Positions 18,618 through 43,225 of a stretch of 64,000 nucleotides of DNA are shown here, in pieces. Origin of the DNA: Candidatus Omnitrophota bacterium (GTDB lineage Bacteria > Omnitrophota > Omnitrophia > Omnitrophales > Aquincolibacteriaceae); NCBI GenBank assembly GCA_023247035.1, contig JAHFHG010000002.1, forward strand, positions 12,090-76,089, given 5' to 3'. The notes under the pieces were generated by a model, which saw nothing but the letters and a program-made list of their open reading frames with translations, ran no database searches and was not told the DNA's origin. The translations under genes and the position numbers were made by a program. Each line of letters opens with the position of its first letter. Positions within the stretch are counted from its first letter, which is position 1.

Positions 18618-18619
18618 AT

Positions 18620-19840: not shown

Positions 19841-19844
19841 GTCC

Positions 19845-20156: not shown

Positions 20157-20260
20157 AGCGCGGCCTTCCCAAGCGATCCGGCCTAAAAGTTTGACCTGTG
20201 AACCGCTCGACGAAGATTGGTTATTTGAAGGAAGGTTTTAGTTTCATCAATAAGGAAAAA

Positions 20261-20902: not shown

Positions 20903-20903
20903 A

Positions 20904-22739: not shown

Positions 22740-22745
22740 CCCGCC

Positions 22746-24158
22746 ATGAATGAAAATTTCCACGCGGTTTTGATTGCCGGCACGCATTCCAGCGCCGGCA
22801 AGACCACCTGGTCGCTCGCTTTAATGGCGCTGGCCCGGAAAAAAGGACTCACGGTGCAGCCCTTTAAGGCGGGCCCGGATTACATCGATCCGGGTTTCCA
22901 TCATGAAATTTGCTCTCCGCGGCGTTCAAGAAACCTCGACCTCTTTTTCCTTTCAAAAGAAAAAATATCCGAGAGTTTTCATAACCGCTCTCGGGATACC
23001 GGCCTCGCGATTGTGGAAGGAGTCATGGGACTTTATGACGGCAAAGGGCCGAGCGGTACCGAAGGAAGCAGCGCGGAACTGGCGAAGATTTTGAGGCTTC
23101 CGGTTCTGTTAGTGATCGACGGCTCGAAAATGGCCGGGAGCGCGGCGGCATTGGTTTCAGGATTTAAAAATTTTGATCCCGCAGTTCATTTGGCCGGTGT
23201 TTTGATCAATCGCGTGCGGCCGGGGCATTTCCATTTGCTCAAGCGGGCGATTGAACTTTCGACGGGGCTCCCGTGTCTTGGATTCCTGCCCGAGGAGGAA
23301 GCCTTTTCGATTCCCGAGAGGCATTTAGGATTGACCCCCGCCGCTGAGACGCAAAATTGGAAAGTGAAAATCGACCGGGCCGCCTCTTTTCTTGAAAAGA
23401 ATTTGGATTGGGATGCTTTCCTCCGGATTTCCACGATTCCAAGACCGCCTGCGCAAGCTCAGCCTAAGGAGAAGGTTGAAAGGAATAAGTCTTCCCAAGA
23501 ACCGGTTAAGATCGGCGTGGCGCGTGACGCCGCTTTTTCCTTTTATTATGAAGACAACTTGGATCTCCTCAACGAGCAGGGAGCGGAGATTCTTTTCTTT
23601 TCTCCCCTTAAGGATCCTGTTTTGCCCGAAGGCTTGGATTTCCTTTATCTGGGAGGCGGATTCCCTGAAATTTACGCCCAGGAGCTCGCCAAGAATGAAT
23701 CGATGATAAAATCCGTCCGGGATTTTTACGCCCGGGGCGGTTTTATTTACGGCGAATGCGGCGGGCTTATTTATTTGGCGGAGGCTTTCTGCGATTCAGA
23801 CGGAACGGAATATCCTTTATTGAAATTGCTGCCGGGAAAAATCGCGATGACCCGCCGGTTGCAGAATTTCGGATACCATGAAATAAAAACGCAAACCGAT
23901 ACTTTCCTATTTTCCAAAAATACGGCGCTTCGATCTCATGAATTCCATTATTCGATTTGGAATCAGGAAGGAAACGCCTCTCCGGCGTATCAGATCGGAG
24001 ACCGGCCGGAAGGTTTTGCGTCCGGGCGGATTTTTGCAAGTTATCAGCACTTGCATTTTGGTTTGGATTCCCGGATTTTAGCCCGGCTGTTTGAAAGTTT
24101 AAAGGCTTCCCAAGATCTTAATCGCGGCAAACAAATAAAAAAGGAGGAAAAACAATGA
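22746..24158 (+). CDS. cbiA: Cobyrinate a,c-diamide synthase (CbiA/CobB)
   Basis: N-terminus AVLIAGTHSSAGKTT and a C-terminal GATase1 domain with a conserved Cys (GECGG). Confidence 0.85.
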   Translation: MNENFHAVLIAGTHSSAGKTTWSLALMALARKKGLTVQPFKAGPDYIDPGFHHEICSPRRSRNLDLFFLSKEKISESFHNRSRDTGLAIVEGVMGLYDGKGPSGTEGSSAELAKILRLPVLLVIDGSKMAGSAAALVSGFKNFDPAVHLAGVLINRVRPGHFHLLKRAIELSTGLPCLGFLPEEEAFSIPERHLGLTPAAETQNWKVKIDRAASFLEKNLDWDAFLRISTIPRPPAQAQPKEKVERNKSSQEPVKIGVARDAAFSFYYEDNLDLLNEQGAEILFFSPLKDPVLPEGLDFLYLGGGFPEIYAQELAKNESMIKSVRDFYARGGFIYGECGGLIYLAEAFCDSDGTEYPLLKLLPGKIAMTRRLQNFGYHEIKTQTDTFLFSKNTALRSHEFHYSIWNQEGNASPAYQIGDRPEGFASGRIFASYQHLHFGLDSRILARLFESLKASQDLNRGKQIKKEEKQ

Positions 24159-24505
24159 AATCAAAACAGACGAAGGCGGTTTTCATTGCGCTGGTTTTGT
24201 CCCTCGGATTTATTTCTAACTTTCCGCTTGCGGCGCAGGCGGCGGGGGAGGGAACGACGGGGGATTATTTCGTCGATATCGGAACGAAGTTCGGCAGGGG
24301 CCTTTGGAACACGGTTTCAAGTCCGGCCGAGATCCCCTGCACGATCACGGCGGATATTCAAAATCAGGGGGGCGTCGGATTTTTCAGCGGTTTTGGAAAG
24401 GGAATCTTGTTTATGCTGCGCCGCATTCTTGTCGGAGTCACCGAAGTCGGCACGTTTATCATTCCGATGGGCGCGACGATTCCTGCTGTTTGCAGTTCGA
24501 AATAA
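24155..24505 (+). CDS. Small exported hypothetical protein
   Basis: Signal peptide MKSKQTKAVFIALVLSLGFISNFPLAAQA. Sits between cbiA and cobQ. Confidence 0.4.
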   Translation: MKSKQTKAVFIALVLSLGFISNFPLAAQAAGEGTTGDYFVDIGTKFGRGLWNTVSSPAEIPCTITADIQNQGGVGFFSGFGKGILFMLRRILVGVTEVGTFIIPMGATIPAVCSSK

Positions 24506-24511
24506 ATACGA

Positions 24512-26041
24512 ATGAAAAAAGCTAAAAGCTTGATGGTGCTCGGCACGGGTTCCGGCGTCGGCAAGTCCTTTGTGGCCGCAGGGCTCTGCCGTTTGCTTTC
24601 CAATTCCGGATTTCGCACGGCCCCTTTCAAGGCGCAAAATATGTCCAACAATTCTTACGTGACGGAGGAGGGCGGAGAAATCGGCCGGGCCCAGGCCGTG
24701 CAAGCGGAGTGCGCCCGGGTCACGCCTCATACGGATATGAATCCGGTGCTTTTAAAACCGGCCTCGGACAACGGCTCTCAAGTGATTTTGCAGGGAAAAT
24801 CGATCGGGCATTTTAAAGCCCGCGAATTTTATTCTCAAAGGGAACGGATCGCAAAGGCCATCCGCGAATCTTACGAACGCCTGTCCGCTTCTTATGAAAT
24901 GATTATCTTAGAAGGCGCGGGAAGCCCGGCGGAAATCAATCTGAAAAAAAATGACCTCGTCAATATGCCGATGGCCCGGCTTGCAGGCGCGCGCTGCATT
25001 CTTGTCGGCGACATTGACCGGGGCGGTGTTTTCGCTTCCCTGATCGGGACGCTGAGCCTGCTGGAGGCTGAGGAACAGGAACGGATCGCCGGATTTGTGA
25101 TCAATAAATTCCGCGGCGATTTCTCGCTTCTTGAAGACGGCCTAGACTTTTTAGAGGAGCGGACGGGAAAAAAAGTCTGGGGCGTGCTTCCTTACGATCG
25201 CGATTTGTGGATCGAGGAAGAGGACGCGCTTGCGGTGGAGAATACGAATTTTCGTGATCCAGATAAACAAAAACTTGATAAACTTGATATCGCCGTCATT
25301 TTGCTGCCGCGGCTTTCCAATTTTACGGATTTCGAAATCCTCAAACACGATCCTTCCGTTCAGCTCCGTTATATCAAAAAACCCGAAGAAGTGGGGGAGC
25401 CTGACCTTTTAATTTTGCCCGGCACGAAAGCGACGCTTGCCGACTTGGCGTACCTTAAGGAAAAGAGATTGGATACAAAGATTCTGGATTTTGCGGATCG
25501 AGGCGGCAGGATCCTCGGCATTTGCGGGGGCTATCAAATGATGGGAACGCGCCTTCGTGATCCGCACGGTTTTGAGGAAAGGAATCAAGGGGAAATCGAA
25601 GGCCTTAAGCTGTTTAAAATGGCCACGGAATTTTATCCTGAAAAGGTGTTGCGAAAGGCCGAAGATTTTGTCGATTCGGAAATTTTCGGCGCGCGCGTTT
25701 CGGGAAAACTGGAGTGTTACGAAATCCATATGGGGCAAAGCACGCTTGAAGAGTCTTATCAACCGTTCGGAACTTGCGGCGCTATCCATCCTTCAGGAAA
25801 AATATTGGGCACGTATTATCACGGATTATTCGACAGCGGGGAATTTCGCGAGTCCTTTTTGAATGCGCTCGCTCAAAGCGCGGGGAAGCGGAGAGCCGGC
25901 GGAGGGCATTTACAATCTGCAGGCCAACTCAAGGAAATTCATTATGAGCGTCTCAGCCGGCTTCTTTTGCAGCGCCTTAATCTGAATTTATTAAGCGAGG
26001 CGTTGGGGATTACGGAATTTCATGCGGTTCCTCAGGCGTAG
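24512..26041 (+). CDS. cobQ: Cobyric acid synthase
   Basis: SLMVLGTGSGVGKS start and a GATase-like C-terminus (ICGGYQMMG). Confidence 0.9.
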   Translation: MKKAKSLMVLGTGSGVGKSFVAAGLCRLLSNSGFRTAPFKAQNMSNNSYVTEEGGEIGRAQAVQAECARVTPHTDMNPVLLKPASDNGSQVILQGKSIGHFKAREFYSQRERIAKAIRESYERLSASYEMIILEGAGSPAEINLKKNDLVNMPMARLAGARCILVGDIDRGGVFASLIGTLSLLEAEEQERIAGFVINKFRGDFSLLEDGLDFLEERTGKKVWGVLPYDRDLWIEEEDALAVENTNFRDPDKQKLDKLDIAVILLPRLSNFTDFEILKHDPSVQLRYIKKPEEVGEPDLLILPGTKATLADLAYLKEKRLDTKILDFADRGGRILGICGGYQMMGTRLRDPHGFEERNQGEIEGLKLFKMATEFYPEKVLRKAEDFVDSEIFGARVSGKLECYEIHMGQSTLEESYQPFGTCGAIHPSGKILGTYYHGLFDSGEFRESFLNALAQSAGKRRAGGGHLQSAGQLKEIHYERLSRLLLQRLNLNLLSEALGITEFHAVPQA

Positions 26042-26118
26042 GGGTTGCAATGCCCCCCCTGCGATCAGCGCAACGAATGTATTGCAATTTAGGATTATTG
26101 TTTTATGATTTTTAATCT

Positions 26119-26529
26119 ATGCCGACGAAAAAAGACGCTTACCTGATTATCGCGCACGGGACCCGGGATCCGGAAGGCCGGCGCGCCTTCGGGGAATTTC
26201 TCGGAAAATTCCGGGCGGCTTATCCGCACCGGCATATCCAGGGCGCATTTTTAAGTATGGGCGAACCGACGGTCCCTCAAGCCGTTGAGCGCTGCGTCCA
26301 GGAAGGGGCCCGGCAAATTTTCGTCATTCCTCTTTTGTTTTTTTCCGGCCGGCACGCAAAGGAAGATATCCCCCGCCGCATTCAGGAGGCGAAAAGCACT
26401 TACCCCGAGATTGACTTTCATTATGCGAGTCCGCTCGCCGAAAATCCCAAGTTGTTTTCACTCTTGGAAGAAAAGATGAAGACCTTAACACAAGGTAAGA
26501 TGAAAGGCAAATGCACCAACGCGGTATAA
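26119..26529 (+). CDS. cbiX: Sirohydrochlorin cobaltochelatase, short form (CbiX-like)
   Basis: AYLIIAHGTRDPEGR ... FVIPLLFFSGRHAKEDI. Confidence 0.7.
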   Translation: MPTKKDAYLIIAHGTRDPEGRRAFGEFLGKFRAAYPHRHIQGAFLSMGEPTVPQAVERCVQEGARQIFVIPLLFFSGRHAKEDIPRRIQEAKSTYPEIDFHYASPLAENPKLFSLLEEKMKTLTQGKMKGKCTNAV

Positions 26530-26559
26530 AGCGATGAGTTCAACCGCTGGAGGTGCAAG

Positions 26560-27106
26560 ATGGAGTATTCAAACCCTTGAGAGGAAAATGTTGGATGAAG
26601 ACCTGGAGTTTTTAGAAGCTTTGAGGACGTTCGGTCTATGGGATCAGTTTTGGAGGAACTGAGAGAAAAGGATGAAGTCGGTAGAGGGTTTGAAGAGCGT
26701 TCCCGGGATCGGGAAATTCTTCGCGATGCCCATACGCCACGAGATTGAGGGCATCGATTGATTTCAGACATCCGATAAGCTTTGTGCTTATGCAGGATGG
26801 GTCTCCTCGACTTGCGGCATCATCAAGCAAGGGAATAAATGCTTACGGTGTGCGCTTATTGAAGCGGTGATTCCGGCCATTAGAGTCGATGCGCAGTTTA
26901 GAAGTTATTACGAATCCATGAAGGTGAAGAAAGGCGCCAACGCAGCGAAGGCGGCGACAGCAAGAAGACTGCTGAGAATCATTTGCCGGATTTGGAAAGA
27001 GAAAAGATTGTATCGAACACAATCACTTAATGGACCGCTCTCCTCACCTCCTAAAGGTCCCGGATTTATGGGGAGCGTTCTTGGACATAGGTTAGAGGAT
27101 CCGTGA
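26560..27106 (+). mobile_element. IS110-family transposase remnant: C-terminal Transposase_20 region only, with at least one frameshift; the DEDD N-terminal domain is absent
   Basis: LKSVPGIGKFFAMPIRHEIEGID then, after a frameshift, FQTSDKLCAYAGW...GANAAKAATARRLLRIICRIWKE; typical IS110/IS116/IS902 C-terminus. Confidence 0.6.
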
Positions 27107-27247
27107 ATCGGATTTTACGATGTGCGGCGCTGATGCGGGCACGAATAGAAGGATGATCAGCTTTTATGAGGGGATCAAAGCAACAAAAGCCAATGCAGCC
27201 CCTTAAAAAATAATCTTGCATTTGGCTTTCATAGAAGGAGACAAGGC

Positions 27248-27442
27248 ATGAGCGAATCGAAAAAACCAAAATATGAACCTCCGAAAGTTTACCGCGTTGT
27301 GCTGAACCACGATCAGGCGATCCTTTCGGGCTGCTCCACAGGGACGACGAGTATTTCCAACACGACCGGCGCGAATTGTAATACCAGCTGCCGCCGAAGC
27401 ACGTCCACCGCGACCAGTTCCAACTCATCGGCTTCCTCGTAA
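27248..27442 (+). CDS. Candidate RiPP precursor peptide (64 aa; leader MSESKKPKYEPPKVYRVVLNHDQAIL, core rich in Ser/Thr/Asn/Gly with 3 Cys)
   Basis: AAGGAG Shine-Dalgarno 7 nt upstream. Stop lies 8 nt before the kinase gene. Low-complexity STNC core. Confidence 0.5.
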   Translation: MSESKKPKYEPPKVYRVVLNHDQAILSGCSTGTTSISNTTGANCNTSCRRSTSTATSSNSSASS

Positions 27443-27450
27443 AACCGGCG

Positions 27451-28326
27451 ATGCGGAATAAACGCTTTGAGATCGCCAATATTCCGTTTAGTTTCCTTCA
27501 CGATTCCTTTCATATTACCGACTGGCCGAACCCTTTTTATTTCCCGTTTCAAACTCAGAAGCCCGAGTTGATCAGGATACAAACCCGCCGCCTGAGAAAT
27601 ATTCCCTCCCGCGCTTCTTTTTCTGACCTGCGCTTCGACGGCGGTGCGCATTGGCGCCTTTTCGAGAATCACGGGCAATTCGAAGTCCATCTTTTCGATC
27701 CCAAAACCAAAGCGCACGACCGGACGGCGCGTATCTCGCCTGATTTTACGGAAGTGGAGCTGATCCATTGGAAAAAGTCTCATTTCCTGAACTGGATCCT
27801 GCGTCCGCTTGCCGAGATTCTGCTCGTCCATTATCTTGCGTCCCGGGAAGGTTTGCTGGTTCACGCAGCGGCGGTGCGGGACGGCGATCAGGCCTATCTT
27901 TTCGTGGGCCGCTCCGGCGCCGGAAAAACCACGATTTCAACGTTTTGGGCCGGCGTCGAGGGCGACGTTTCTGTTTTGGGAGACGAGCGGCTCGTGGTGC
28001 GGCGCGAGGCCGGCGAATGGTTTGCGTACGGCACTCCCTGGCCGGGAATGGGTTTCCGCTGCAACAATGAACGCGTGCGGATCAGCCGCGTTTTTTTTAT
28101 CCGCCACGGGAGTGAGCATGAAATCATCGAGCAGGGTCCCGCCCTTTATTTTAATGAATTGTTCACGCAGGTTTTTTCCTCTTTTTGGAACCTTGAGGCG
28201 CTCGATCAAATCACGCGGACTTGCCAGAAAGCTGTGGAGGAAATTCCCTGCCGCCTGCTGGCCTTCGCGAAAGCGCCGGATGTGACCGGGTTTGTCAGGA
28301 ATTTTAACTGCGCCGCGCAGCCTTAA
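27451..28326 (+). CDS. HprK-related P-loop serine kinase-like protein
   Basis: AYLFVGRSGAGKTTIS...VLGDERLVV parallels the HprK C-terminal kinase core (Walker A plus acidic motif). Confidence 0.6.
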   Translation: MRNKRFEIANIPFSFLHDSFHITDWPNPFYFPFQTQKPELIRIQTRRLRNIPSRASFSDLRFDGGAHWRLFENHGQFEVHLFDPKTKAHDRTARISPDFTEVELIHWKKSHFLNWILRPLAEILLVHYLASREGLLVHAAAVRDGDQAYLFVGRSGAGKTTISTFWAGVEGDVSVLGDERLVVRREAGEWFAYGTPWPGMGFRCNNERVRISRVFFIRHGSEHEIIEQGPALYFNELFTQVFSSFWNLEALDQITRTCQKAVEEIPCRLLAFAKAPDVTGFVRNFNCAAQP

Positions 28327-28334
28327 ATCCGCTT

Positions 28335-29378
28335 ATGGAAAATTTGCCGCAGGTTTCCGTTCATGAGTTCAATGACCGTCTCCGCGCCCGCGCAAAAGAG
28401 CTGCGGATCCCGTTTCAGGCCTCGCTGGAATTGACCTATGCCTGCAACTTTCGCTGCGTCCATTGTTTTAATCCGCACCACGAATCGAAGGACGACCTTG
28501 GAACCGAATTTTGGAAATCCGTTCTTGGCCAGCTTGCCGGCGAGGGCTGTCTCGTCGCGCTTTTTACCGGCGGCGAGCCGCTCGTGCGCAAAGATCTTTT
28601 TGATCTGCTCGCTCACGCCCGCAATTTGGGAATGCAGTGTATTCTCAACACCAACGGCCTTCTGCTCGATCCGGAAAAAATCCAGAGGCTCGAGGAATCG
28701 GGTCTGACCTTGCTGGCGGTTTCCGTTTTCGGGATGAGCGTTCAAAGTTACGAATCGGTGACCCGCATCCCCGGATCGTTCGCGCGCTTTTTGCTCCACG
28801 TGGAGCAGCTCAGGCGGTCCCGAATCCCGCTCCTTTTTAAAATGCCGGTGATGCAAATGAATTACCAGGAAGTGGAATACGCCAAGGATTGGTTTTCAAG
28901 CCGGGGACTTCTCCTCAAACACACTTCGGAGATCCAGCCTCGCGCGGACGGCGATCCGGAACCTTTGCAGCACCGTATTTCAAGCGCCCAAGCAGCGGAT
29001 TTGAGATTCCGTTACGAAGAAGATTTAGGATGCGGAAAACGAAGCCCCCGGAAAGATGAATTTTTTGATTGCCAATGCGGGAAAAGCGCGGTCGCCATTA
29101 CCCCGCGCGGCGAAATGAATCTGTGCGTCTCTTTCCATTATCCGCGCCACTCGCTTTTAAAAGGAAGTGTCCGGGAGGGCTGGAAAAGGCTTGTGGATTT
29201 TGCGGCAGATTTCAAACCCTCCGAAAAATACGAGTGCCCGGGCTGCCGGTTGTCTCCTTACTGCTCGCGCGGCGCAATGGATTCGTGGCTGAATACGGGC
29301 GATTTCAATCCGTGCGTCCCTTACTTTAAGGAAGTCGCAGGCCGGATTGAAGGCGCCCTGAAAAAAAGGAGTGAATGA
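28335..29378 (+). CDS. Radical SAM enzyme with a C-terminal SPASM domain (peptide-modifying maturase class)
   Basis: TYACNFRCVHCFN (CxxxCxxC) near the N-terminus. C-terminal CQCG...CPGCRLSPYC auxiliary-cluster Cys pattern. Confidence 0.8.
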   Translation: MENLPQVSVHEFNDRLRARAKELRIPFQASLELTYACNFRCVHCFNPHHESKDDLGTEFWKSVLGQLAGEGCLVALFTGGEPLVRKDLFDLLAHARNLGMQCILNTNGLLLDPEKIQRLEESGLTLLAVSVFGMSVQSYESVTRIPGSFARFLLHVEQLRRSRIPLLFKMPVMQMNYQEVEYAKDWFSSRGLLLKHTSEIQPRADGDPEPLQHRISSAQAADLRFRYEEDLGCGKRSPRKDEFFDCQCGKSAVAITPRGEMNLCVSFHYPRHSLLKGSVREGWKRLVDFAADFKPSEKYECPGCRLSPYCSRGAMDSWLNTGDFNPCVPYFKEVAGRIEGALKKRSE

Positions 29379-29385
29379 AGAAAGT

Positions 29386-29850
29386 TTAGGGCGGGCTTCC
29401 GGAATGCAATCGCCTTAAAATCCGCGAAGGCGCGTCGAGAAACCAGGGATTGGTCGGTGAAAGGAGGGCCTGCCAAAAGCGAAGAAGGAACGGCCGTTTT
29501 TCCAGGTCGAAAATTTTTTCTCCTCTTTGAACCTGCGTGATCTTTCCCACCAGCGGAGAAATTCCGGCGCGTCCTTTGAAGAAAGGGACAAAACAGGTGT
29601 TCGCATGAAAATTTTCACCGGATATTTTTCTCACCGCGACATCGCCGAATCGAAGGCTCGATTCGTCTGTTTTCTTGATCGTAACGAGGTCGCCCCGGCG
29701 CACCACCGGCCACATGCAATTTCCAAAGAGTTTCATTTGAACGGAGCCGGAAAATTCCAATTCCGAAAGAAGAATCGAGGCCTGCAGGGGTTGGGAAAGG
29801 GCCTTTTCTTCAAGAGGCGGATTAAGGGACGGCACGGCCAAATTTAGCAC
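29386..29850 (-). CDS. S24/S26-like (LexA/signal-peptidase fold) peptidase with Cys in place of the nucleophile Ser
   Basis: GNCMWPVVRRGDLVTIKK ... FGDVAVRKI mirrors G(D/N)SMxP...GDlvlV...GDivVaK of S24 peptidases. Convergent with the rSAM gene, gap 8 nt. Confidence 0.5.
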   Translation of the reverse strand: MLNLAVPSLNPPLEEKALSQPLQASILLSELEFSGSVQMKLFGNCMWPVVRRGDLVTIKKTDESSLRFGDVAVRKISGENFHANTCFVPFFKGRAGISPLVGKITQVQRGEKIFDLEKRPFLLRFWQALLSPTNPWFLDAPSRILRRLHSGSPP

Positions 29851-30020
29851 GGCGGAGCCGGCTTCCGCAACGGATCTTTTGCCTTCGCCGGATTTTCAAT
29901 TCTTTCTAACATTCAGGATCATTTTCAGTCTTCGGCTCAAAAGCGCATTCTGCGCATTTGATCTTACAAAACGAACCGCTATAATTAATGAAACACGGGC
30001 GGCAGGAAATCGAACCCTTC

Positions 30021-33000
30021 ATGAAAACCATCTCTTTATTCCAGAAACCCAGCGCGATTTTTTTAATCTTTTCTTTAAGCCTTTCCCAAAGTCCCTCGTA
30101 TGCCGCTGCCGCGCCGGCGCCTCCGCTGGCGGTTTCTGAGCGCTCCCGGGCGCTTCTTTTTCTTCCCGAAGAACTTGGCGAGATCGAAGAATCCTTTCAG
30201 GGATCGAACGGAAAAACCGTGATCTTCATTCAAGACGCCCACGATTCCCTCGAAGCGCAGGAAAATATCGCCAAGACTATTCAATACCTGGTGGACAAGT
30301 ACGGGGTGAAGACTGTTTTTGAAGAAGGCTATGAAGGTCCTGTTCCCACGGATGATTATTTCGGCTTCATCAAAGATCCGTCCGTCAAAGAGAAAGTTTC
30401 TTACTTTTTATTAGATAAACTCCGCCTCGGCGGCGCGGAATACGCACACATCAACCGCTTTCACAACTTGTCATTCCCGCACGCGTTAAGCGGGAATCCA
30501 AATTTTAGGTCCCCGATAGAAACATTCGGGGACGACAAAAAACGTGTCGATTTCAAACTGATTGGGGCAGACAATATAAAGTTACATCTTGAGAATATCG
30601 ATTGGTATCGCCAGAATGCCAAGCATAAAGAAGAAACTGGAAGAGATTTGACTATTCTGCAAAATGAAATCGACAAACTTGCCAACCGGTATTTTCCTAA
30701 GGAACTCAAAGAATGGATGAAGCTTAAGAAAAGGTTTGATGAGAAACAAATTGATCTTTTGGATTATTTAAAGCGGACAATACAAGTCCCTCATCGAGAA
30801 TCCATAGACCATAAACTTTACCCCAATCTTTCGCTTCTCCTTCAAGCAGAACACACTCAAGACAAAGAAGTCCTAGAGAAAGTGAAAACCATTGAAGCCA
30901 AGATTCTTTTCGAGGAAATCGATTCGTTGGAAAACGCCGCCGCCGGCCCATTCCTACAAAATGGAACAGACCGGAAAATCTTCCAATATTACAAAGGAAT
31001 AAATCTTCTCAAAAGACTCAACGAGATTGAGATTACGCCCGCTGAATATGAGGCGGTCAAAGCGCAGCTTCAACATCTCAGCACCCAGGAACTGGCCCAA
31101 TTTATTGTCCAGCAAACGAATAAATCCATCGTCCTTTCCAAACGATGGGAGGAAAATATTGAAAGCGCCATTCGGTTTTATCAAATCTCACGAGCCAGAG
31201 ATTCTGCGATTGCCGAGCGACTGAATGATTTTCTTAAAAATCATGATGAAAAAGTGGCTGTCCTTGTCTTTGGAGGATTTCATAAAGAGAGGATTACAGA
31301 ATTGTTGAGAAAGAAAGGACTCCCTTACTATATAGTTTCTCCTCGAATAATGAACGTCGACAATAAGCATAAGGAACTCTACGCGCATTTAATGACAAAG
31401 GGATATTCGCTTTTCCCCGTTGCGGCAAATGTTGCTAAGGCAGCGCGTTTAGCAGGAGAGATCGAGCTCGCGGAAATGGGCGGCCAGAACGCAAAGTCAG
31501 AACTCCGAGCGTACCATGCGGCAATCACTAACATTGTTTCTTCATTGGTCTCCAATCGACCCAATCAAACATCTCGAGAACTGCTCGATCGTTTGATTAA
31601 CGGACGATTGATACACGAAGTTCTAAAAGTATCCAAACAAGCAATGGGAAAACGCCGATCCGAACTAAGAAGTAAAGAATCGGATTTTGCTTTAAGAGAA
31701 AAACGCCGTGATTATCTCAAGCGGCTAATGAATCAAGAAAATAAGCAATGGACGTTGGATGAGTTAGCAAACGCTACAGGTCAATCAACAGGACAGATTG
31801 TTAAGGATTTGCGATATTTGAATCTTTTTAAGCCCTCAAATCACCTAAATTTAGATGCCGAACGCATAGACCGAAGAAGACAGTGGGGATTACCAGATTA
31901 TTCTGACCTCGATAAGCTTTTACCTCGCTTGGATGAAGAATTTGCATATCTTCATGGAGAGGCTCTTTTTAATTTTTTAGCTCAAAAAGGCCGCGAGAAT
32001 GACCCCGTAAGCATGGAAGCGGCTATTTACGGCTTCTATAAATTTGTTGGAGAAAAAACCCCCGGTAATATTTCAGAACGAGGGCGATTGCTTGGTGAAC
32101 GCATTTATCACTATCTGAGGTTAAGAGAAAGTATGCCTTCTGACGGCCTGCGTCGAAATCCAGATGTTGAGTTCGATATTGGTATGGCAGAAAAAAGGAA
32201 GCGGGAGTCACGGCTTCCAAAATTTGGAAATATAAAAACAAGGAGGCCGAAGAAGAAAGTTTCTTTTTCGGAAGCACAGCAAATTATGGAAGAAAAAAAT
32301 TTACATTTAGATCAATCAATCGCATTCGTTGCGTTGTCCACGGCAGAAAATGAAACTTTATTTCGAGCGCTTAAATCAAGCGAATTGGAAGAGTCCGAGC
32401 GAAGACAAATTTATGATTATTTGATTCAGAAGCATGTAGGGTTTGTCGGCTGGTGGATCAAACATAAGATGCCGCCTTGGTATTTTGAACATTTTAACTT
32501 CGAAGAACTTTTAGCTTTTGGCCAAATTGGCCTTATGAAAACGATTGAAAGATATGATTTCAAAATGGGGCGGCGCTTTACCAGTTATGCCGAATGGTGG
32601 ATTCGCCATTCTATCCAACGCTCCATAGAGAAAAAAACACATAAATCTTTAAATGTCAGGCGTGATGAGGATAGCCCGGAGTGGATTGATACTTTGTCGG
32701 ATTCAAAAGATCAATCGGAAGAAGAATTATGGCCGGAACTATTTTCCAGTCTTAGGCATCTCGATAGTCGGTCTCGCATTATGTTGAGCTTGCGTTACGG
32801 GATTGGATCAGTAAGAACATACAATCTTCGAGAAATTGGCTTAATGTTTGGTGTAACTCACGAGCGTGTTAGACAAATTACAGAAAGAGCAGTTGAAAAG
32901 TTAAAACGCTTGGTTGGAAAAGTAACGGTTGATGATTCTTCTCAAGACCATACCGATGTTTTTTTATTCGAGGCTATGGAGTTAGAGCCAGAGAATCCAC

Positions 33001-36000
33001 TTTTCAAGCCACTAAGCCATCTCGGAGTTAAAAAGCTTGACCGGATTCGAGAAGTTCTTTCAAAAGAAAATCGCTTCAACTCGGAAATGCTGATGAGGAT
33101 TTTTAGGTCACGCGGCCAGTATGTGATAGCTCCATCGAAATATTTATGGGGTCTGCCTGCGGGTTTGCTTGAAACCGGCGGTGACACTTCCCATCATTTT
33201 GGATCGTGGAATGAAGAAGGTGGAAGACATAACATAGATTTACAAAAACCCAAAAAGATTCATTTTTCCAACGCACTCACAACCACAACCGAAATCATAA
33301 AAAGGTATCCTTATGCTCGGTATCTACTGCCTCCTGAAGAACAACTATTGCTGGCCTCTCAGGCTCAAGGAGAAAGGAGCCGATTCTATGCTTTGGGTAA
33401 GACATTGCAGTGGATTGGACTTTCTCCGCAAGATTTTATTATTTGGCTTGTTGAAAATAAAAAATATTTAGATCAAGAAATCGTTGATTTTATCGCACAA
33501 TCACCACTTTCTAAACGTCCTCGATACGAGCTAACGGCATCCCGCACAGGTGAGCATCTTCATGGGTCTTTACCAAGACCACGTACTGACCGAAAGATTG
33601 CAACGAAATGGATTTCAACTGAAGAAACCAGCTACACGCTAATCACACCTGCTGAATTGGCGGACCGCTTCCCTTCTGCCGAACCCTTCTTGGATAAACT
33701 CGAACCTCAATTACTTCTTGAGGCGGATTCGTCCGAGCATGATGAAATTAAATACTATTCTTTTGTTGAAGATGGACATCATACAAAAATTCTAATAAGG
33801 ATCAATAAAAGAACCGGCGAAATCCAAAGTCCTCATGATGGCCCAATCGGTTTTAGAAAGGAAATTTTGGATTTTGTAAGAAAAGGTGAGTTTGGCAATA
33901 AGCAAAAGCCTCCTGTTACCGCGCCTTTTGAAATGCACGCCGGATCACGGCATTTTATTTATTTCGGAACGATGGGGAAAGGTTCCATTGGCTTGAGTAT
34001 GAAGGGAGTGAAACCTAACACGCGTGTATCAGGAAGCGCTGTTCATTTGGAGCATGCTCCTCTTGGAATGGGGCCGCAATGGCTTTTAAGACTCACTGTT
34101 CATTTGAAAAGACCAAGAGTTGTTTATGCGAGATTCAAACGCTCTGGAACCCGCTTAGGTTTATTTAAAAAATCCCCTCAAACTTATATCGGAGCTTTTG
34201 TCAAACTTGGGAAATGGAATCAGGAAAAAATCCAGCCATTCCCTGAAAATGAAATCGAAATTACCGCGAGTTCCAAAGGACGTTTGGAACTTGGAAGCAA
34301 TGGCGATGGAGAGCGGATTGTTATTCACTTACCACTTTTACCCAAAGATCATAAAGTTTTAATTCGAAAAGTCCGCAATCAAGAAGATGGACAACAGCTC
34401 TTGGTCGTTCATACCCGCAATCCTGCTTATCGATATAGAAAATTTTATTATCGATTCACGAATCGTGGCTATCACACCCGAAGATACCACGAGGAAGTAA
34501 AGGACATAAGTCCCACGGCTAGAAGGAAGCTTAGCTATGAAGAAATTGCAAAGGCACAAGAAGATTTGAGAAGCCGAGAAGGAGCAGAGGCAAACTTATG
34601 GCGCGATCCCGAAAAGATTGCTTATGAGCTTGACCTATTCGACGCTTATTATCTTGTTTCGGAAGTTCAAAGAATAAACGCTTCTTTAGTTGCTCAAGAC
34701 ACAGCTAATTTGCCGCCTCTCGAAATAGACACCTCAAAGATTGTTGAGCTGCCGACTCCGGCTTACGATCAAGTAGGAGACGTTTATCATGCTGTTCCAG
34801 AATCTTCTGAGCGACCGGAGAAATCCGAGAAACCAGTCAAACCTAAACCATTATCCCCTTTAAGACTTGCTCAAAAAAGATTGGAAGAAGCTGAAAAAAA
34901 AACATTAGCTGAACGTTTGAAGGTTGGCTTTCGAGATGTGGGAGAAAGCGGTCGGTTTTTAGATTTGGGCGCAGGAAAGGGTGATTTAACCGCTGAACTT
35001 GCTGGACAATTTCAAGGTGGGGTTGCAGTCGAAATAAATGAAGATCGAGTCGAGCAGCTACGGCAGAGAAAAATTCCAAATCTTAATATTTGGGACATGG
35101 ATTTTTTTGATTATATGGAGATGGCGATTAAAGGGAATCAGCTTTTTGATGCGATTCTCATTTCACATGCTCTTTTATTCATTAAATTTGATCGCCGGGA
35201 CGCTTTCTTAAAAGATGTTCTATCAAGACTTAAGCCGAATGGAAAATTAGCGATTATTTTAAATGGCAGTAAAATTGAAGAGAGAAACCAAGTTCAGTTG
35301 CGAGCAAAGCTCATGAGAAAGCATGAGGCGCTAGCAGGAGACAACCCATCAACCAATATTGAAAGCAAACTGCGACAAATCGGCTATGGGGTACAAACCG
35401 AAAGAGTCAGAATCATTCATGAGACTCCTTCCAGAGACGAAATGATTTCTATTGTAAAAGCAATATTGCCACGCGAAGACCGTTTTCGTCTGTCGAATAT
35501 CACTGGATTTGTCGATTCAGTCCTGAAATTACCTGGAGAAGAAAAGTACCGCCTCTATGTTGATCAAGATATTTTATGGATAACACATCCTCGTTCTGAG
35601 GTTAGAAAGCAAGAAAATGTATTTGCAATGGTGTCTGTCAACGATTGGCAAAACTTTAATCGAACTAATCAGAATACCGAGGCTACGGCCACCAAAGCCG
35701 TCGTTTTTATAGATGGTTCCGTCGATAGCAAAGATGCCAAGCAGCGGGCGGAAGAATTAGCGGTGCTGGCCGCAGGTAATCCGAACCGAACGATTGTGGT
35801 TTATAATGCGGACAAAGTTTTTAAAAATAAAGGCGGTGAAATGGCGGAACTTTTAAAGTCGTTTGGTCTCGCCAATGTCAAGTTCGCTGCGGGTGAGTTG
35901 TCCGAAGCCCTCAAGCCCTACCAATTCCGGGATCAAGTTGATTTGGTGCACTACTCGGCAAGCGAAGAGGAGGCTGTTTTTGTTCAAGCCTCCGTTGGGA

Positions 36001-36209
36001 AATGGCTGGCGCAAAAACTGACCCGATTTGTCGGAGGGCCCGGCGCCTTAGGATACGGAATAAAATATTTGCAGGCTGTGAAATTGGGCAAGCCTGTGGA
36101 AGGTATCACGCCCGAGAACGGCTACTACGCCGTTTCCCCAGGCGCTTCGGAGTGGATGCGAAGCCTTTATCGAGCTCGGTTCGCGACCGTTTTCGCTCAA
36201 GCGGCGTGA
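30021..36209 (+). CDS. Giant multidomain protein (about 2060 aa): signal-peptide-like N-terminus, TraB/GumN/TIKI-like domain, sigma-70 region 2 plus region 4 module, central unknown region, class I SAM-methyltransferase motif, unknown C-terminus
   Basis: Uninterrupted 6.2 kb frame in AT-rich DNA. Motifs IFIQDAHDS...VLVFGGFHKERITELLRKKGLPYYIV; GQIGLMKTIERYDFKMGRRFTSYAEWWIRHSIQRSI; LREIGLMFGVTHERVRQITERAVEKL; FLDLGAGKGDLT. Confidence 0.7.
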   Translation: MKTISLFQKPSAIFLIFSLSLSQSPSYAAAAPAPPLAVSERSRALLFLPEELGEIEESFQGSNGKTVIFIQDAHDSLEAQENIAKTIQYLVDKYGVKTVFEEGYEGPVPTDDYFGFIKDPSVKEKVSYFLLDKLRLGGAEYAHINRFHNLSFPHALSGNPNFRSPIETFGDDKKRVDFKLIGADNIKLHLENIDWYRQNAKHKEETGRDLTILQNEIDKLANRYFPKELKEWMKLKKRFDEKQIDLLDYLKRTIQVPHRESIDHKLYPNLSLLLQAEHTQDKEVLEKVKTIEAKILFEEIDSLENAAAGPFLQNGTDRKIFQYYKGINLLKRLNEIEITPAEYEAVKAQLQHLSTQELAQFIVQQTNKSIVLSKRWEENIESAIRFYQISRARDSAIAERLNDFLKNHDEKVAVLVFGGFHKERITELLRKKGLPYYIVSPRIMNVDNKHKELYAHLMTKGYSLFPVAANVAKAARLAGEIELAEMGGQNAKSELRAYHAAITNIVSSLVSNRPNQTSRELLDRLINGRLIHEVLKVSKQAMGKRRSELRSKESDFALREKRRDYLKRLMNQENKQWTLDELANATGQSTGQIVKDLRYLNLFKPSNHLNLDAERIDRRRQWGLPDYSDLDKLLPRLDEEFAYLHGEALFNFLAQKGRENDPVSMEAAIYGFYKFVGEKTPGNISERGRLLGERIYHYLRLRESMPSDGLRRNPDVEFDIGMAEKRKRESRLPKFGNIKTRRPKKKVSFSEAQQIMEEKNLHLDQSIAFVALSTAENETLFRALKSSELEESERRQIYDYLIQKHVGFVGWWIKHKMPPWYFEHFNFEELLAFGQIGLMKTIERYDFKMGRRFTSYAEWWIRHSIQRSIEKKTHKSLNVRRDEDSPEWIDTLSDSKDQSEEELWPELFSSLRHLDSRSRIMLSLRYGIGSVRTYNLREIGLMFGVTHERVRQITERAVEKLKRLVGKVTVDDSSQDHTDVFLFEAMELEPENPLFKPLSHLGVKKLDRIREVLSKENRFNSEMLMRIFRSRGQYVIAPSKYLWGLPAGLLETGGDTSHHFGSWNEEGGRHNIDLQKPKKIHFSNALTTTTEIIKRYPYARYLLPPEEQLLLASQAQGERSRFYALGKTLQWIGLSPQDFIIWLVENKKYLDQEIVDFIAQSPLSKRPRYELTASRTGEHLHGSLPRPRTDRKIATKWISTEETSYTLITPAELADRFPSAEPFLDKLEPQLLLEADSSEHDEIKYYSFVEDGHHTKILIRINKRTGEIQSPHDGPIGFRKEILDFVRKGEFGNKQKPPVTAPFEMHAGSRHFIYFGTMGKGSIGLSMKGVKPNTRVSGSAVHLEHAPLGMGPQWLLRLTVHLKRPRVVYARFKRSGTRLGLFKKSPQTYIGAFVKLGKWNQEKIQPFPENEIEITASSKGRLELGSNGDGERIVIHLPLLPKDHKVLIRKVRNQEDGQQLLVVHTRNPAYRYRKFYYRFTNRGYHTRRYHEEVKDISPTARRKLSYEEIAKAQEDLRSREGAEANLWRDPEKIAYELDLFDAYYLVSEVQRINASLVAQDTANLPPLEIDTSKIVELPTPAYDQVGDVYHAVPESSERPEKSEKPVKPKPLSPLRLAQKRLEEAEKKTLAERLKVGFRDVGESGRFLDLGAGKGDLTAELAGQFQGGVAVEINEDRVEQLRQRKIPNLNIWDMDFFDYMEMAIKGNQLFDAILISHALLFIKFDRRDAFLKDVLSRLKPNGKLAIILNGSKIEERNQVQLRAKLMRKHEALAGDNPSTNIESKLRQIGYGVQTERVRIIHETPSRDEMISIVKAILPREDRFRLSNITGFVDSVLKLPGEEKYRLYVDQDILWITHPRSEVRKQENVFAMVSVNDWQNFNRTNQNTEATATKAVVFIDGSVDSKDAKQRAEELAVLAAGNPNRTIVVYNADKVFKNKGGEMAELLKSFGLANVKFAAGELSEALKPYQFRDQVDLVHYSASEEEAVFVQASVGKWLAQKLTRFVGGPGALGYGIKYLQAVKLGKPVEGITPENGYYAVSPGASEWMRSLYRARFATVFAQAA
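30470..30536. repeat. Second copy of the double-hairpin unit, located inside the coding sequence of the giant ORF (read through in frame)
   Basis: TTGTCATTCCCGC...GCGGGAATCC...GTCCCCGATAGAAACATTCGGGGACGAC aligns with 14389-14445. Confidence 0.5.
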
Positions 36210-36270
36210 GGAGTTCAATCGAGAAAAAAAGTTTTGAATTCGGAATGCGTGTTCAGAATCGCGGCCGTAT

Positions 36271-36696
36271 CTAATTCAACTTCACGACGTCGCTGACGCG
36301 GTCGCGGTGAATCTTCACAATGAAGGCCCCTGCGGCGAGGCGAGGCTCGATCGTGCGTTCCGTGATTTTATCCACGTAGGGAAGATACCCTTTGTAGTAA
36401 ACAAAATACCAGTCCTGCGAAACGTTCTGCTCAATCGTGCGGATTTCCTGCGGCTGCCCCAAAAGACTCAGGACCTCGTTAGCGCTTTTGCCTTTGAGGA
36501 ACAACTTTCCATTGGCGATGATCCGCCGGTTGGTCATTTGATCCCTGCCGAACTGGTCGCCTCCCTTGAAAAAGGTGTAGGGCTTCTCCTGCAGGGGCTG
36601 CCAAATCCCGATGCCCGCGCAGCCGCTTAAAAATAAAACAAAACAAAAAAGCAAAAGGGAATGCAGAACTTGTAGATTCGAAATTGGGGTCTTCAT
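36271..36696 (-). CDS. Small lipoprotein, hypothetical
   Basis: Lipobox LFLSGCAG after a hydrophobic signal. Confidence 0.5.
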   Translation of the reverse strand: MKTPISNLQVLHSLLLFCFVLFLSGCAGIGIWQPLQEKPYTFFKGGDQFGRDQMTNRRIIANGKLFLKGKSANEVLSLLGQPQEIRTIEQNVSQDWYFVYYKGYLPYVDKITERTIEPRLAAGAFIVKIHRDRVSDVVKLN

Positions 36697-36841
36697 TTTT
36701 ACTGCTAAGCATATCGGCGTTTTTGAGGAGGCCTTAAATCAGATCCCGCGCCCCAGCCGTCCGTTTATTCTGCTAGACGCTTGCCTGAGGCGCTTGATAT
36801 GATTGATCCTTGAACATTCAAGGATCGCTTCAGAGAGGCCT

Positions 36842-38914
36842 ATGAGTTCTCATCATCCGGATCCCGCCAACCGTTTGGCGAAAGAAAAAAGCCCTTACCT
36901 TCTCCAGCACGCCCAAAATCCCGTAGATTGGTATCCGTGGTCGGAAGAGGCCTTCGAAAAAGCAAAGCGCGAGGGCAAGATGATCTTCCTTTCCATCGGC
37001 TATTCGACCTGCCACTGGTGCCACGTGATGGAACACGAATCCTTCGAGAATCGGGAAATCGCCGCGCTCTTGAACCGGCATTTTGTCTCGATCAAAGTCG
37101 ACCGCGAAGAAAGGCCCGATATCGACCAGATTTATATGACCGCGATCCAGACGATGACCGGATCGGGAGGCTGGCCGCTGACCGCATTCCTGACTCCGGA
37201 AGGCCGGCCGGTCACCGGCGGGACCTATTTTCCTCCCGAGGACAAGTGGGGCCGGATGGGAATGAAAACCCTCCTGCCGCGGCTCGCTCAAATGTGGGAA
37301 GAAAAACGCCGGGAAATGGAAACGGCCGGAGAGCAGCTGGCGGGAATCCTTCAATCCCAGCCCTCCCCGTCTTCTCCAATGATCCTGAGTGAAGAAATTT
37401 TTACCGTCGCGCACGGCCAGTTTGCGGCAAGCTTCGATCCCGAGCACGGCGGCTTCGGAAAGGCGCCCAAGTTTCCCCGCCCGCACGATTTGTCCTTCCT
37501 TCTCCGCTATTGGAAAAGGACTTCCGGCGCGCGCGAACTTGAAATGGTGAAGACGACTTTAAATCAGATGGCCCAAGGCGGGATTTACGATCACCTCGGC
37601 GGCGGATTCCACCGCTATTCCACGGACGAGGCCTGGCTCGTCCCTCATTTTGAAAAGATGCTTTACGATCAGGCGCTTCTGGCCCGGACCTACCTTGAGG
37701 CGTACCAGGCGGCGCGAATCCCGGAATACGCGGACGTGGCGCGCGATATTTTCAATTATGTCCAGCGGGATATGACGGCTCCGGAAGGCGGATTCTATTC
37801 CGCCGAAGACGCGGACAGCGAAGGCGAAGAGGGGAAGTTTTACGTCTGGCGCCCGGAAGAAATCCGGAAAATCTTGGGCGAAGAAGACGGGAAAATTTTC
37901 AATGAATTTTATGGAATCACGGACGCCGGGAATTTTGAGCACGGGATGTCCATCCTGCACCTCACTCAGCGCATTCCGGAATTCGCGGCGCAAAAAGGGA
38001 TACCGGTTGAGGAACTGAAAAGAAAACTCGTCGAGGGCCGGCGGAAACTTTTTGAATCCCGCCGCAGAAGAATCCCGCCGCATAAGGACGATAAAATCCT
38101 CACGGCCTGGAACGGGTTAATGATTTCTGCGCTGGCGCTCGGGGCGCAAATCTTAGATGAGCCTTCTTATTCCGCAAGCGCCGGCCGGGCCGCGGATTTT
38201 ATCCTTACAAGCCTCCAGCGCGGAGGAAGGCTTTGGCGCCGCTTCCGCCAAGGCGAGGCTGCGGTCCCGGCGTTTCAGGAGGATTACGCCTTTTTTGCCT
38301 TGGGCCTCCTTGATCTTTATCAGGCCACTTTTGAAATCAAATGGTTTGAAGAGGCGAAACGGCTGACGGAAGACATGATCCGTTTTTTCTGGGATGAAAA
38401 AGCCGGCGGATTTTTTTACACGGCATCAGACAGCGAACCTTTGATCGCCCGGATGAAGGAATATTACGACGGGGCCGTCCCTTCCGGGAATTCCATCGCC
38501 GCCCTTTTGCTTTTAAGATTGAGCCACATGACGGGCGGAAGCTCTTTGCGGGAAACGGCCGAAAAAATTTTTCATTCCAACGCCCAGGCCCTGGAAAAAT
38601 ATCCGATGGCTTTTCCTCAGTTCTTGATCGCGGTCGATTTTGCGCTCGGCCCGGCGCGGGAGATTGTTTTGGCGGGAAAAAAAGACTCCCCGGATTTTCA
38701 AAATTATCTGCGGCTGCTGCGGAGCCGTTTTGAACCGCGCCAGGTCGTCTTGCATCATCCGGAAGATGAAACGGCCGGGAGGATCGAAAATTTGGCGGGT
38801 TTTATCAAGGATCAGATTGCTCCGGCGGGCAGGACCGCGGTTTATGTCTGCCGGAACCGGACGTGCCGGCGGCCGGCCGCGACACTCCAAGAGCTTGAGA
38901 AGATATTATCGTAA
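36842..38914 (+). CDS. Thioredoxin-domain protein of the DUF255 / YyaL (spermatogenesis-associated protein 20-like) family, with a C-terminal six-hairpin glycosidase-like region
   Basis: [17 protein letters not shown]...[16 protein letters not shown]. Confidence 0.8.
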
Positions 38915-38945
38915 ACCCATTTTGAATAACTCCGGCGGCCGATAG

Positions 38946-40079: not shown

Positions 40080-40101
40080 CCTTAAAAGATCCTATAAAGA
40101 G

Positions 40102-43120: not shown

Positions 43121-43225
43121 AAAAATTTAATCTTATTTTAATCTTTTTTTAACTCACCGCTTGCTATCATTCTTGGAAATTAGTCCTCTTATTCCAAGAG
43201 ACATAAAAAGACAGGAAAATCTCAC

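Follow-up and report, generated by a model that had tools for sequence, protein, structure and literature searches.

A giant open reading frame (ORF) in the genome of a Candidatus Omnitrophota bacterium (lineage Aquincolibacteriaceae; assembly GCA_023247035.1, contig JAHFHG010000002.1) was found to carry a sigma-70-family module within a protein that is probably exported. The stretch analysed, referred to below as the window, comprises 64,000 nucleotides (contig positions 12,090 to 76,089, forward strand); the giant ORF occupies window positions 29988..36209 on the plus strand and encodes 2,073 amino acids (aa) with 0 cysteines and no internal stop. It is nearly certain that aa 775-1006 (32310..33005, +) constitute a real sigma-70-family module, and we consider it probable that this module is the cargo of an exported modular protein family, in which case a transcription-initiation domain seems to be exported from the cell as cargo. 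A sequence-only reading of the same DNA had recognized a sigma factor in the giant ORF; the sigma domains it described are present, but the context it gave was incomplete, as the module appears to be one cargo type of a signal-peptide-bearing, cysteine-free family.

Profile, fold and key residues all bore out the sigma-70 region 2 and region 4 signatures of that reading, including the profile search and the model comparison it had suggested as checks. Both Pfam domains scored above their cut-offs, Sigma70_r2 (PF04542) with 27.5 bits against 24 (E 2.8e-6, aa 836-884) and Sigma70_r4 (PF04545) with 39.9 bits against 24.1 (E 3e-10, aa 922-973), as did the NCBIfam model TIGR02937 (73.1 bits, cut-off 42.9, E 1.9e-20, aa 810-974). 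A phmmer search against all PDB chains retrieved RpoD, SigA and RpoS with E values of 9e-20 to 1e-14. An AlphaFold2 model of aa 740-1000, built from an alignment of 38 sequences, had a mean predicted local distance difference test score (pLDDT) of 80, mostly above 90 in the sigma2 and sigma4 blocks, and when it was compared with the PDB by Foldseek the top 50 matches were all sigma chains (SigA/RpoS) of RNA polymerase complexes, with probability 1.00.

The module can be followed residue by residue along the primary sigma factors. It opens with a region-1.2-like helix, LSTAENETLFRAL (aa 783-795; 32334..32372, +), recognized from alignments and from the signature L[ST]xxEExxLFRAL of a clade described below. 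The sigma2 domain (regions 2.1-2.4; 32493..32639, +), with FTSYAEWWIRHSIQRSI, was delimited by the Pfam region 2 match and by residue alignment to RpoD; in the phmmer alignment, query segment 97-144 corresponds to residues 399-446 of Escherichia coli sigma70. The residues Y430, W433, W434, R436 and R441 of sigma70, a set that captures the flipped -10 bases and melts the promoter, are kept in the query, and Q437 and T440, which read position -12, have become H and Q, respectively. An acidic, disordered linker of 20 aa, RRDEDSPEWIDTLSDSKDQS (32658..32717, +; pLDDT 41-44), replaces sigma3 and region 3.2, and in the multiple alignment the acidic stretch RRDEDSPEWIDTLSD of the query aligns to the 'PIGDDEDSHLGDFIED' part of RpoD. 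Sigma4 follows (regions 4.1-4.2, a helix-turn-helix, HTH), with GVTHERVRQITERAVEKLK (32751..32906, +), placed by the Pfam region 4 match and by alignment to RpoD; in region 4.2 the residues E585, R586, R588 and Q589 are kept and R584 has become H. The module closes with a second clade motif, QDHTDVFLFEAMELEPENPLF (aa 986-1006; 32943..33005, +; consensus DHxDV[FY]LxE..GIxPxDxxF). The sequence-only reading had picked out two peptides within 32400-32930 and an aromatic cluster for -10 recognition. The peptides GQIGLMK...IQRSI and LSLRYGIG...VEKLK are indeed found there, at aa 845-880 (window 32520-32627) and aa 933-973 (window 32784-32906), and the cluster (Y, WW) is formed by the equivalents of Y430, W433 and W434, but the spacing of about 95 aa that it gave between the peptides has to be corrected to 88 aa from start to start, with 52 aa between them.

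The same reading had supposed that region 3 was short or absent, as in extracytoplasmic function (ECF) or group-3-like sigmas. Region 3 is absent: no match to Sigma70_r3 (PF04539) or to the r1_2 model was found in the query even at E ≤ 1, and an alignment with 37 stand-alone relatives shows a clean gap in the query over the whole sigma3 domain. The query resembles ECF (group 4) sigmas in having only sigma2 and sigma4 with a short linker and in passing the TIGR02937 superfamily model, and to that extent the comparison stands as a description of two-domain architecture; as a statement of descent it does not. A word-indexed search returned 96 matches, all of them free sigmas of 223-456 aa (local identity 24-47%); almost every one is described as primary or RpoD-like and possesses region 3. 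Because these nearest relatives are RpoD-like with region 3, and because the alignment gap is clean, the module is on sequence grounds RpoD-like by descent, and its ECF-like layout arose through loss of sigma3. Unlike ECF sigmas, the query has a region-1.2-like helix, the -10 aromatic cluster of primary sigmas and no adjacent anti-sigma gene. Group-3 sigmas possess region 3. An ECF or group-3 assignment was rejected on the relatives, which are of the RpoD/SigA/RpoS type or are giant-borne modules that retain sigma3, and on the alignment. The best sequence and fold matches are group 1 and 2 sigma-70 factors (RpoD/SigA, RpoS), with which the query has in common the region-1.2-like helix, regions 2.1-2.4 with the Y/WW residues, an acidic 3.2-like segment and the recognition helix RERVRQI; unlike RpoD and RpoS it is without sigma3 and region 1.1 and is embedded at aa 775-1006 of a signal-peptide protein, and its scores against the corresponding equivalogs are far below cut-off (RpoD_Cterm 78.9 vs 354; rpoS 69.3 vs 378.7).

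When 1.84 billion representatives were searched exhaustively with phmmer, 44,100 sigma relatives emerged, and the best match and several of the next were very long proteins. Among the long sigma-bearing proteins were P0220 (3,581 aa, several sigma copies), P0118 (2,384 aa, two copies), P0356 (2,965 aa) and P0358 (4,033 aa). Their sigma modules, and that of the giant protein of L080, have two signatures in common that are absent from free sigmas, L[ST]xxEExxLFRAL(H)A(R)N before sigma2 and DHxDV[FY]LxE..GIxPxDxxF about 10 residues after sigma4. Both are present in the query, and they place its module in a clade carried by Omnitrophota giant proteins. A hidden Markov model (HMM) of giant-borne sigmas matches the query protein at aa 771-878 and 881-1030; in model coordinates the clade HMM is matched at positions 1-105 and 167-321, which amounts to a 61-position deletion. 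This sigma3 deletion is unique to the query, and the other giant-borne members of the clade keep sigma3. The WW[IV][RK] motif is kept in the query, P0358, P0356 and the L080 protein and is lost in several of the P0220 and P0118 copies. The literature consulted does not mention sigma domains in Omnitrophota giant proteins.

Some of these long proteins are built in other ways. In the 3,581-aa fragment P0220, four or more sigma-like modules, most of them with a degenerate WW, precede a transmembrane (TM) helix, and the C-terminal domain resembles a glycoside hydrolase. Having neither the N-module nor the RSExR motif described below, P0220 represents another type of giant protein that draws on this sigma clade. 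Arrays of sigma4-like HTH repeats (RYGI/YYGIQD) were observed in P0307 (1,692 aa), P0358 and P0356. In P0307 phmmer matched 9 separate stretches, the repeat is visible many more times, and there is no sigma2. Sigma region 4 seems to be a repeated building block in some very long proteins.

A search with the full protein, rather than the sigma module, returned more than 119 homologous proteins of 1,100-3,600 aa, in which the common part is only aa ~20-500 (40-54% identity). Members of the family as a whole are 1,100 to more than 4,000 aa long, and the named matches are all from Candidatus Omnitrophica/Omnitrophota, except two labelled Verrucomicrobiae. Across 185,579 species genomes there were 139 loci, with 3-5 paralogues per metagenome-assembled genome (MAG), and the 80 of the 139 loci that were retained are all in MAGs labelled Omnitrophota or 'uncultured bacterium'. 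A phage or mobile-element origin was rejected, as the family was not found in IMG/VR contigs and the window contains no tRNA genes; it also contains no Rfam matches, no second family member and no other sigma. The layout of the family is a Sec-type signal peptide, a TIKI/EreA-like N-module, the motif RSE[LVIM]R, a variable cargo, a second RSE[LVIM]R and a C-module ending in FAxAA, the N- and C-modules being conserved and the middle variable. Cargo across the family includes methyltransferases, NUDIX, PPDK_N, HEAT, radical SAM, HAD, ROK, epimerases, glycosyltransferases, NDK, SecA, pseudouridine synthase, kinases and others, and with the clade HMM a sigma or sigma4-like cargo was found in 9 of 202 family sequences. 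In the literature consulted there is no description of this N-/C-module architecture, of RSE[LVIM]R punctuation or of cysteine exclusion in this Omnitrophota family.

Neither constant module matches a Pfam or NCBIfam model or has a sequence relative in the PDB. The conserved N-module of the query (aa ~55-495; 30150..31472, +) appears to have a TIKI/TraB/EreA/ChaN-superfamily fold, with the motifs IQDAHD (H85), EEGxEG (E112/E113), AEYAH (H154) and GGFH (H432), and its invariant residues D83/H85, E112/E113, H154 and H432 sit at the ends of core strands. The effectors HopBA1 and MARTX RRSP were found lower in the list of fold matches, and a sub-threshold Pfam match to Cofac_haem_bdg agrees with the TIKI superfamily. 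Active members of the TIKI group rely on a 2His/2Glu site; some are esterases and others, such as RRSP and Tiki, are sequence-specific endopeptidases (PMC6254334). The conserved C-module (aa 1874-2073; 35607..36206, +), with an alpha/beta-looking sequence pattern, ends in VFAQAA-COOH. A module of ~190 aa was found by jackhmmer at the extreme C-terminus of ~75 family sequences, with one invariant Asp in the alignment and a C-terminus [AV]FAxAA whose last Ala is invariant. This ending (window 36189-36206 in the query) is reminiscent of the nonpolar tags at C-termini that tail-specific proteases or secretion machinery recognize. An autotransporter barrel and a type I secretion signal were considered for the C-module and rejected on its apparently globular alpha/beta pattern and its lack of PDB, Pfam or NCBIfam matches.

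Export is suggested by the N-terminus and by the amino acid composition of the protein. Residues M12-A39 (30021..30104, +) form a putative Sec-type signal peptide, MKTISLFQKPSAIFLIFSLSLSQSPSYA followed by AAAP, with a charged n-region, a short uncharged h-region and the c-region SYA/A. Among 99 complete family N-termini the same pattern recurs: the n-region is basic, with a median of 3 K/R, the h-region is uncharged and ~13 residues long, and the c-region is polar and ends in SYA/A; because the h-region is too short, this segment is unlikely to serve as a membrane anchor in the family. The query has no internal TM segment, the highest Kyte-Doolittle mean over 19 aa being 1.37, which is below TM hydrophobicity. 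Cysteine is absent from all 2,073 residues of the query and has a median of 0.1% in the family, compared with 1.07% in the other genes of the window and 1.09% in ORFs flanking family members elsewhere, a depletion of ~10-fold that also holds in members with TM-like segments. Proteins exported by bacteria that lack a disulfide-forming system typically exclude cysteine, as do proteins that are secreted unfolded.

The pentapeptide that punctuates the family was counted as R[SA]E[LVIM]R. It occurs 438 times in 298,514 family residues and 4.55 times in shuffles, a ~96-fold enrichment, and its density of 1.47 per 1,000 aa compares with 0.10 in control ORFs. Of 123 proteins, 115 contain it, the highest number in one protein being 12 and the median spacing 344 aa; the first copy, at a median position of aa 510, directly follows the N-module, and the last, a median of 201 aa from the C-terminus, directly precedes the C-module. 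The flanks are unconserved except for small residues at -1 and +5. All synonymous codons occur at the motif, and therefore the constraint is on the peptide; the idea of a DNA-level recombination or repeat site was rejected on the same mixed codon usage. In P0118 the motifs bracket each sigma module, at aa 508 and 933 around the module at 554-880 and at aa 1290 and 1680 around that at 1339-1615, and they are absent from giants without an N-module (P0220, P0356). The RSExR motif is not mentioned in the literature consulted. Since the pentapeptide is invariant in linkers that are otherwise unconstrained and co-occurs with a constant protease-type domain, the simplest reading is that it marks a processing site, a proposition to which we give even odds.

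In the query, the first motif, RSELR (aa 557-561; 31656..31670, +), marks the boundary between N-module and cargo, and the second, RSEVR (aa 1869-1873; 35592..35606, +), that between cargo and C-module. A near-motif, KSELR (aa 503-507; 31494-31508), is found at the usual position of the first RSExR (median aa 510), and the canonical RSELR follows 54 residues later. The two motifs delimit one cargo unit, aa 562-1868, which contains, in order, a 210-aa leader with a weak HTH_11 match, the sigma module, a 630-aa orphan region and an S-adenosylmethionine (SAM) methyltransferase. The orphan region (aa 1007-1640; 33006..34907, +), between the sigma module and the methyltransferase, has no homologue in 5.8 billion proteins or within the family and no Pfam or NCBIfam match, the stretch examined being aa 985-1641. 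The class I SAM-dependent methyltransferase domain (aa 1652-1760; 34941..35267, +; motif I LDLGAGKG) scored above the Pfam cut-offs for Methyltransf_31/25/12/11/23, and NCBIfam indicated only generic methyltransferase similarity.

The reading we favour is that the 2,073-aa chain would be exported through Sec and that the cargo unit of aa 562-1868 would then be freed by cleavage at the two RSExR sites, most likely by the TIKI-like N-module, which appears to keep the His/acid catalytic set. An ordinary role on the producer's own RNA polymerase is doubtful because the module is the cargo of a signal-peptide-bearing, cysteine-free family. An exported location would in turn suggest delivery into another cell, as sigma, radical SAM, kinase and NUDIX cargo needs ATP, SAM and nucleic acids. 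In a cytoplasm foreign to the producer, namely that of the host or prey cell of a presumably host-dependent Omnitrophota bacterium, the sigma module would give the cargo unit the ability to bind RNA polymerase core and/or promoter DNA, and the unit would redirect or block transcription there, with the methyltransferase as its enzymatic partner. Omnitrophota have been described as host-dependent or predatory nanobacteria (PMC10066038), and delivery into another cell fits that proposed lifestyle. The giant 'archaeovorin' proteins of the phylum, for which a mostly extracellular location is predicted, contain these cytoplasm-type domains as well (PMC10066038; 10.1101/2023.11.21.568195). We put the whole chain, from export through RSExR release to action outside the producer's cytoplasm, at a probability of roughly 40%. 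That the action is on foreign RNA polymerase is a more doubtful proposal, and the most specific version, in which an exported self-processing polyprotein delivers the sigma module into host or prey and the ~1,300-aa unit reprogrammes or jams the victim's RNA polymerase, is unlikely.

Several observations weigh against this reading. Export, cleavage and delivery of the query protein are all steps that we infer, and the signal peptide was recognized by visual inspection and simple statistics rather than by a trained predictor. No delivery apparatus or conserved partner gene linked to the family was found: the loci have no conserved neighbour and no conserved secretion or protease gene, the most shared neighbour being present at 5 of 80. 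TM-like segments occur in ~45% of family members, several of which, including P0044, P0056, P0110, P0014, P0035 and P0077, have convincing helices immediately C-terminal to the N-module. A TM helix in that position would be predicted to return the cargo to the producer's cytoplasm, and in the TM-bearing members the N-module and cargo may be on opposite sides of the membrane, unlike in the TM-less query. In P0220 the sigma modules and the glycoside-hydrolase domain are on opposite sides of the TM helix. Given the TM-like segments and the layout of P0220, topology is not uniform across the family, as has also been noted for archaeovorins (10.1101/2023.11.21.568195). The cofactors that family cargo such as sigma, radical SAM, kinases, NUDIX, nucleotide-sugar enzymes and SecA depends on are cytoplasmic, which fits the producer's cytoplasm as well as that of the prey. 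The sigma module is flanked by ~775 and ~1,070 residues, or by ~210 and ~860 if the protein is cleaved, and such long flanks are unusual for a sigma docking on core enzyme. In region 2.2, Q406 is replaced by A and E407 by F, both core-binding positions in sigma70. A hydrophobic residue at the E407 position is also found in other aligned sigmas, for example P0218 (ISIGSVGL), and in sporulation sigmas, and for this reason the two replacements are not decisive against core binding. Orthologues of the sigma module were not found beyond ~30% identity in the set of 5.8 billion proteins, nor at all in JGI metagenome contigs.

The points on topology and cofactors bear directly on an alternative in which the protein is a tethered sigma or pro-sigma for the producer's own RNA polymerase, its N-terminal stretch being an anchor or unused and RSExR cleavage releasing the active fragment. 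Precedents exist in the processing of pro-sigmaK and pro-sigmaE and in membrane-held sigma/anti-sigma pairs. Retention of the -10 and -35 recognition residues would be expected of such a protein, the RSExR sites offer a plausible release mechanism, and the alternative would account for cargo domains that need cytoplasmic cofactors, for the TM helices after the N-module of many paralogues, which would leave the cargo cytoplasmic, and for the position of the P0220 sigma modules opposite an extracellular-type glycoside hydrolase. However, the only hydrophobic stretch in the query is a 13-16-aa h-region typical of a cleaved signal peptide, the 10-fold depletion of cysteine, down to 0 in 2,073 aa, is unexpected for a cytoplasmic protein, the released fragment would still be ~1,300 aa long, and no anti-sigma-like partner or regulated-proteolysis genes are found nearby. 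We regard this alternative as rather improbable.

A second alternative is that a sigma-derived fold has been reused without RNA polymerase contact, as a DNA-, RNA- or protein-binding or structural module in an archaeovorin-like extracellular or periplasmic coat protein. Omnitrophota giants have been proposed to be surface coats or adhesins (PMC10066038; 10.1101/2023.11.21.568195), and the loss of sigma3, the altered core-binding positions of region 2.2, the degenerate WW motif of the sister copies in P0220 and P0118 and the sigma4-only HTH arrays of P0307, P0358 and P0356, which suggest that the HTH is a generic building block, are all consistent with this. The query, however, keeps the residues that melt and read the -10 element and those that read the -35 element, for which there is no obvious role outside promoter binding, and both of its domains, sigma2 and sigma4, are retained, with an acidic linker between them about as long as that of ECF sigmas, so that reuse of the fold alone seems an unlikely explanation.

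The base composition of the gene is relevant to a further possibility, that the sigma module was captured by domain shuffling, is non-functional and is being lost, the sigma3 deletion being a first step. The body of the giant gene (window 30200-35800) has a GC content of 0.39-0.45, compared with 0.51-0.58 in the flanks, with switch points at the start codon and ~400 nt ahead of the stop, where the tail of the gene is already at the GC of the flank. In relatives the gap between family genes and their flanks is mostly ≤3 points. The ~9-point gap of the giant gene suggests recent acquisition from lower-GC Omnitrophota, and the pattern may reflect either cassette replacement between conserved gene ends or recent horizontal acquisition. 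A relic would agree with this recent arrival, with a sigma3 deletion found in the query alone, with the lack of orthologues and with the adjacent 630-aa orphan region, but the deletion is clean and in frame, leaving an ECF-like sigma2-linker-sigma4, several sister copies preserve the functional motifs less well than the query, both domains were modelled by AlphaFold2 with high confidence, and a 6.2-kb ORF has been maintained without a stop codon. We consider decay very unlikely.

The possibility that mis-assembly or a sequencing error fused separate genes around an ordinary small sigma gene is remote and was rejected: two public assemblies break inside the C-module, at 35821 and 36092, there are seven clustered mismatches at 35930-35951 and the GC of the gene is unlike that of its flanks, but an independent ENA (megahit) contig is identical to the giant gene over 29988-35929, the 6,219 nt at 29988..36209 (+) are read through without any stop, and the layout of N-module, cargo and C-module, sigma cargo included, recurs in many other MAGs. 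The ENA contig covers window 18334-36092 at 99.9% identity, including the upstream flank and 99% of the gene, and a second ENA contig spans window 35821-50079, the two overlapping by 272 nt. Of the mismatches in the C-module, one codon is changed and the others are synonymous, which suggests strain or paralogue variation, and the assembly breaks there are probably caused by repetition of the C-module among paralogues or strains.

The flanks of the giant gene are ordinary chromosomal genes. Upstream are two CbiA/CobQ-type amidotransferases and CbiX, then, directly before the giant ORF (27451-29378), a gene that the public annotation of this contig assigns to the ScmC family (PF27840), together with a radical SAM gene; this is a cobalamin-related cluster with a SynChlorMet-type cassette, without evident link to the giant gene. 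Downstream are genes for a DUF255 thioredoxin, a DAO oxidoreductase, a CDF transporter and a two-component system. Two small flanking ORFs on the opposite strand, 29386-29850 (-; 154 aa) and 36271-36696 (-; 141 aa), have no Pfam match, and public gene calls give shorter versions of the small opposite-strand flanking ORFs (149, 109 and 141 aa). A promoter-like site, TTGATC-16-TATAAT (29958..29985, +), has 10 of 12 matches and is the best in 29300-36900, though it is weak evidence, as the 13 such sites in that interval are not above the 10.9 found in shuffles. The site is just before the first ATG, for which reason M12 (ATG at 30021) is the likely start.

Comparison with known systems helps to delimit the protein. 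The top NCBIfam and PADLOC match was MzaA of the MZA anti-phage system (NF041931/PDLC02203), which resembles the query in having a sigma-70 domain within a larger non-housekeeping protein. Membership in this defence system was rejected: the match reached 79.5 bits where the cut-off is 800, it was confined to the sigma2/sigma4 stretches (profile ~500-545), and there are no Mza partners nearby. Archaeovorins (West-Roberts et al., 10.1101/2023.11.21.568195) are similar to the query family in phylum, in N-terminal signal peptides and in a cytoplasm-type domain repertoire, the domains in common being methyltransferases, NUDIX, PPDK_N, HEAT, radical SAM, HAD, AAA_5 and SecA, and it has been proposed that they, too, cleave themselves by means of an N-terminal peptidase (10.1101/2023.11.21.568195). 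They are longer than 30,000 aa and rich in TM helices, with C39/S8 peptidase domains (10.1101/2023.11.21.568195), whereas the query has 2,073 aa, no internal TM segment and a TIKI-like N-module, and the archaeovorin literature consulted makes no mention of a TIKI-like N-module, a conserved C-module, RSExR punctuation or a sigma domain. At the level of domains the query is a sigma-70 protein; it is not an RpoD or RpoS equivalog, an ECF sigma by descent, an MzaA or an archaeovorin.

MARTX toxins are modular autoprocessing effector carriers, and in this they offer a parallel for the query family, which is without RTX repeats or a cysteine-protease domain. Unlike MARTX, the family has a Sec signal instead of type I secretion, the TIKI domain is its constant N-module and not, as in MARTX, a cargo, and translocation into another cell is only a proposal. 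The phage sigmas T4 gp55 and SPO1 gp28 are foreign minimal sigmas that take over the RNA polymerase of another organism, but they are small free proteins made inside the infected cell, whereas the query module would need delivery as a protein from another cell; we know of no sequence relationship between these phage proteins and the query sigma module.

Sigma factors are, in textbook terms, free cytoplasmic subunits, and the occurrence of sigma2 and sigma4 in a signal-peptide-bearing protein raises the question of whether a transcription-initiation factor is used beyond the producing cell, for instance by host-dependent nanobacteria that would employ it to attack or manipulate other cells. If this is true, the protein would be without precedent among secreted bacterial effectors in being based on a sigma factor, and with its relatives it would define a new bacterial family of effector-carrying polyproteins that have a cleavage code of their own. 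The query is also a natural experiment in which an RpoD-like sigma has been converted to an ECF-like two-domain architecture by loss of sigma3. For experimenters the family offers candidates for a defined protease/substrate pair and a defined cargo unit, and the combination of N-module, C-module and RSE[LVIM]R could explain the deployment of 'cytoplasmic' enzyme domains in large exported proteins of the Omnitrophota.

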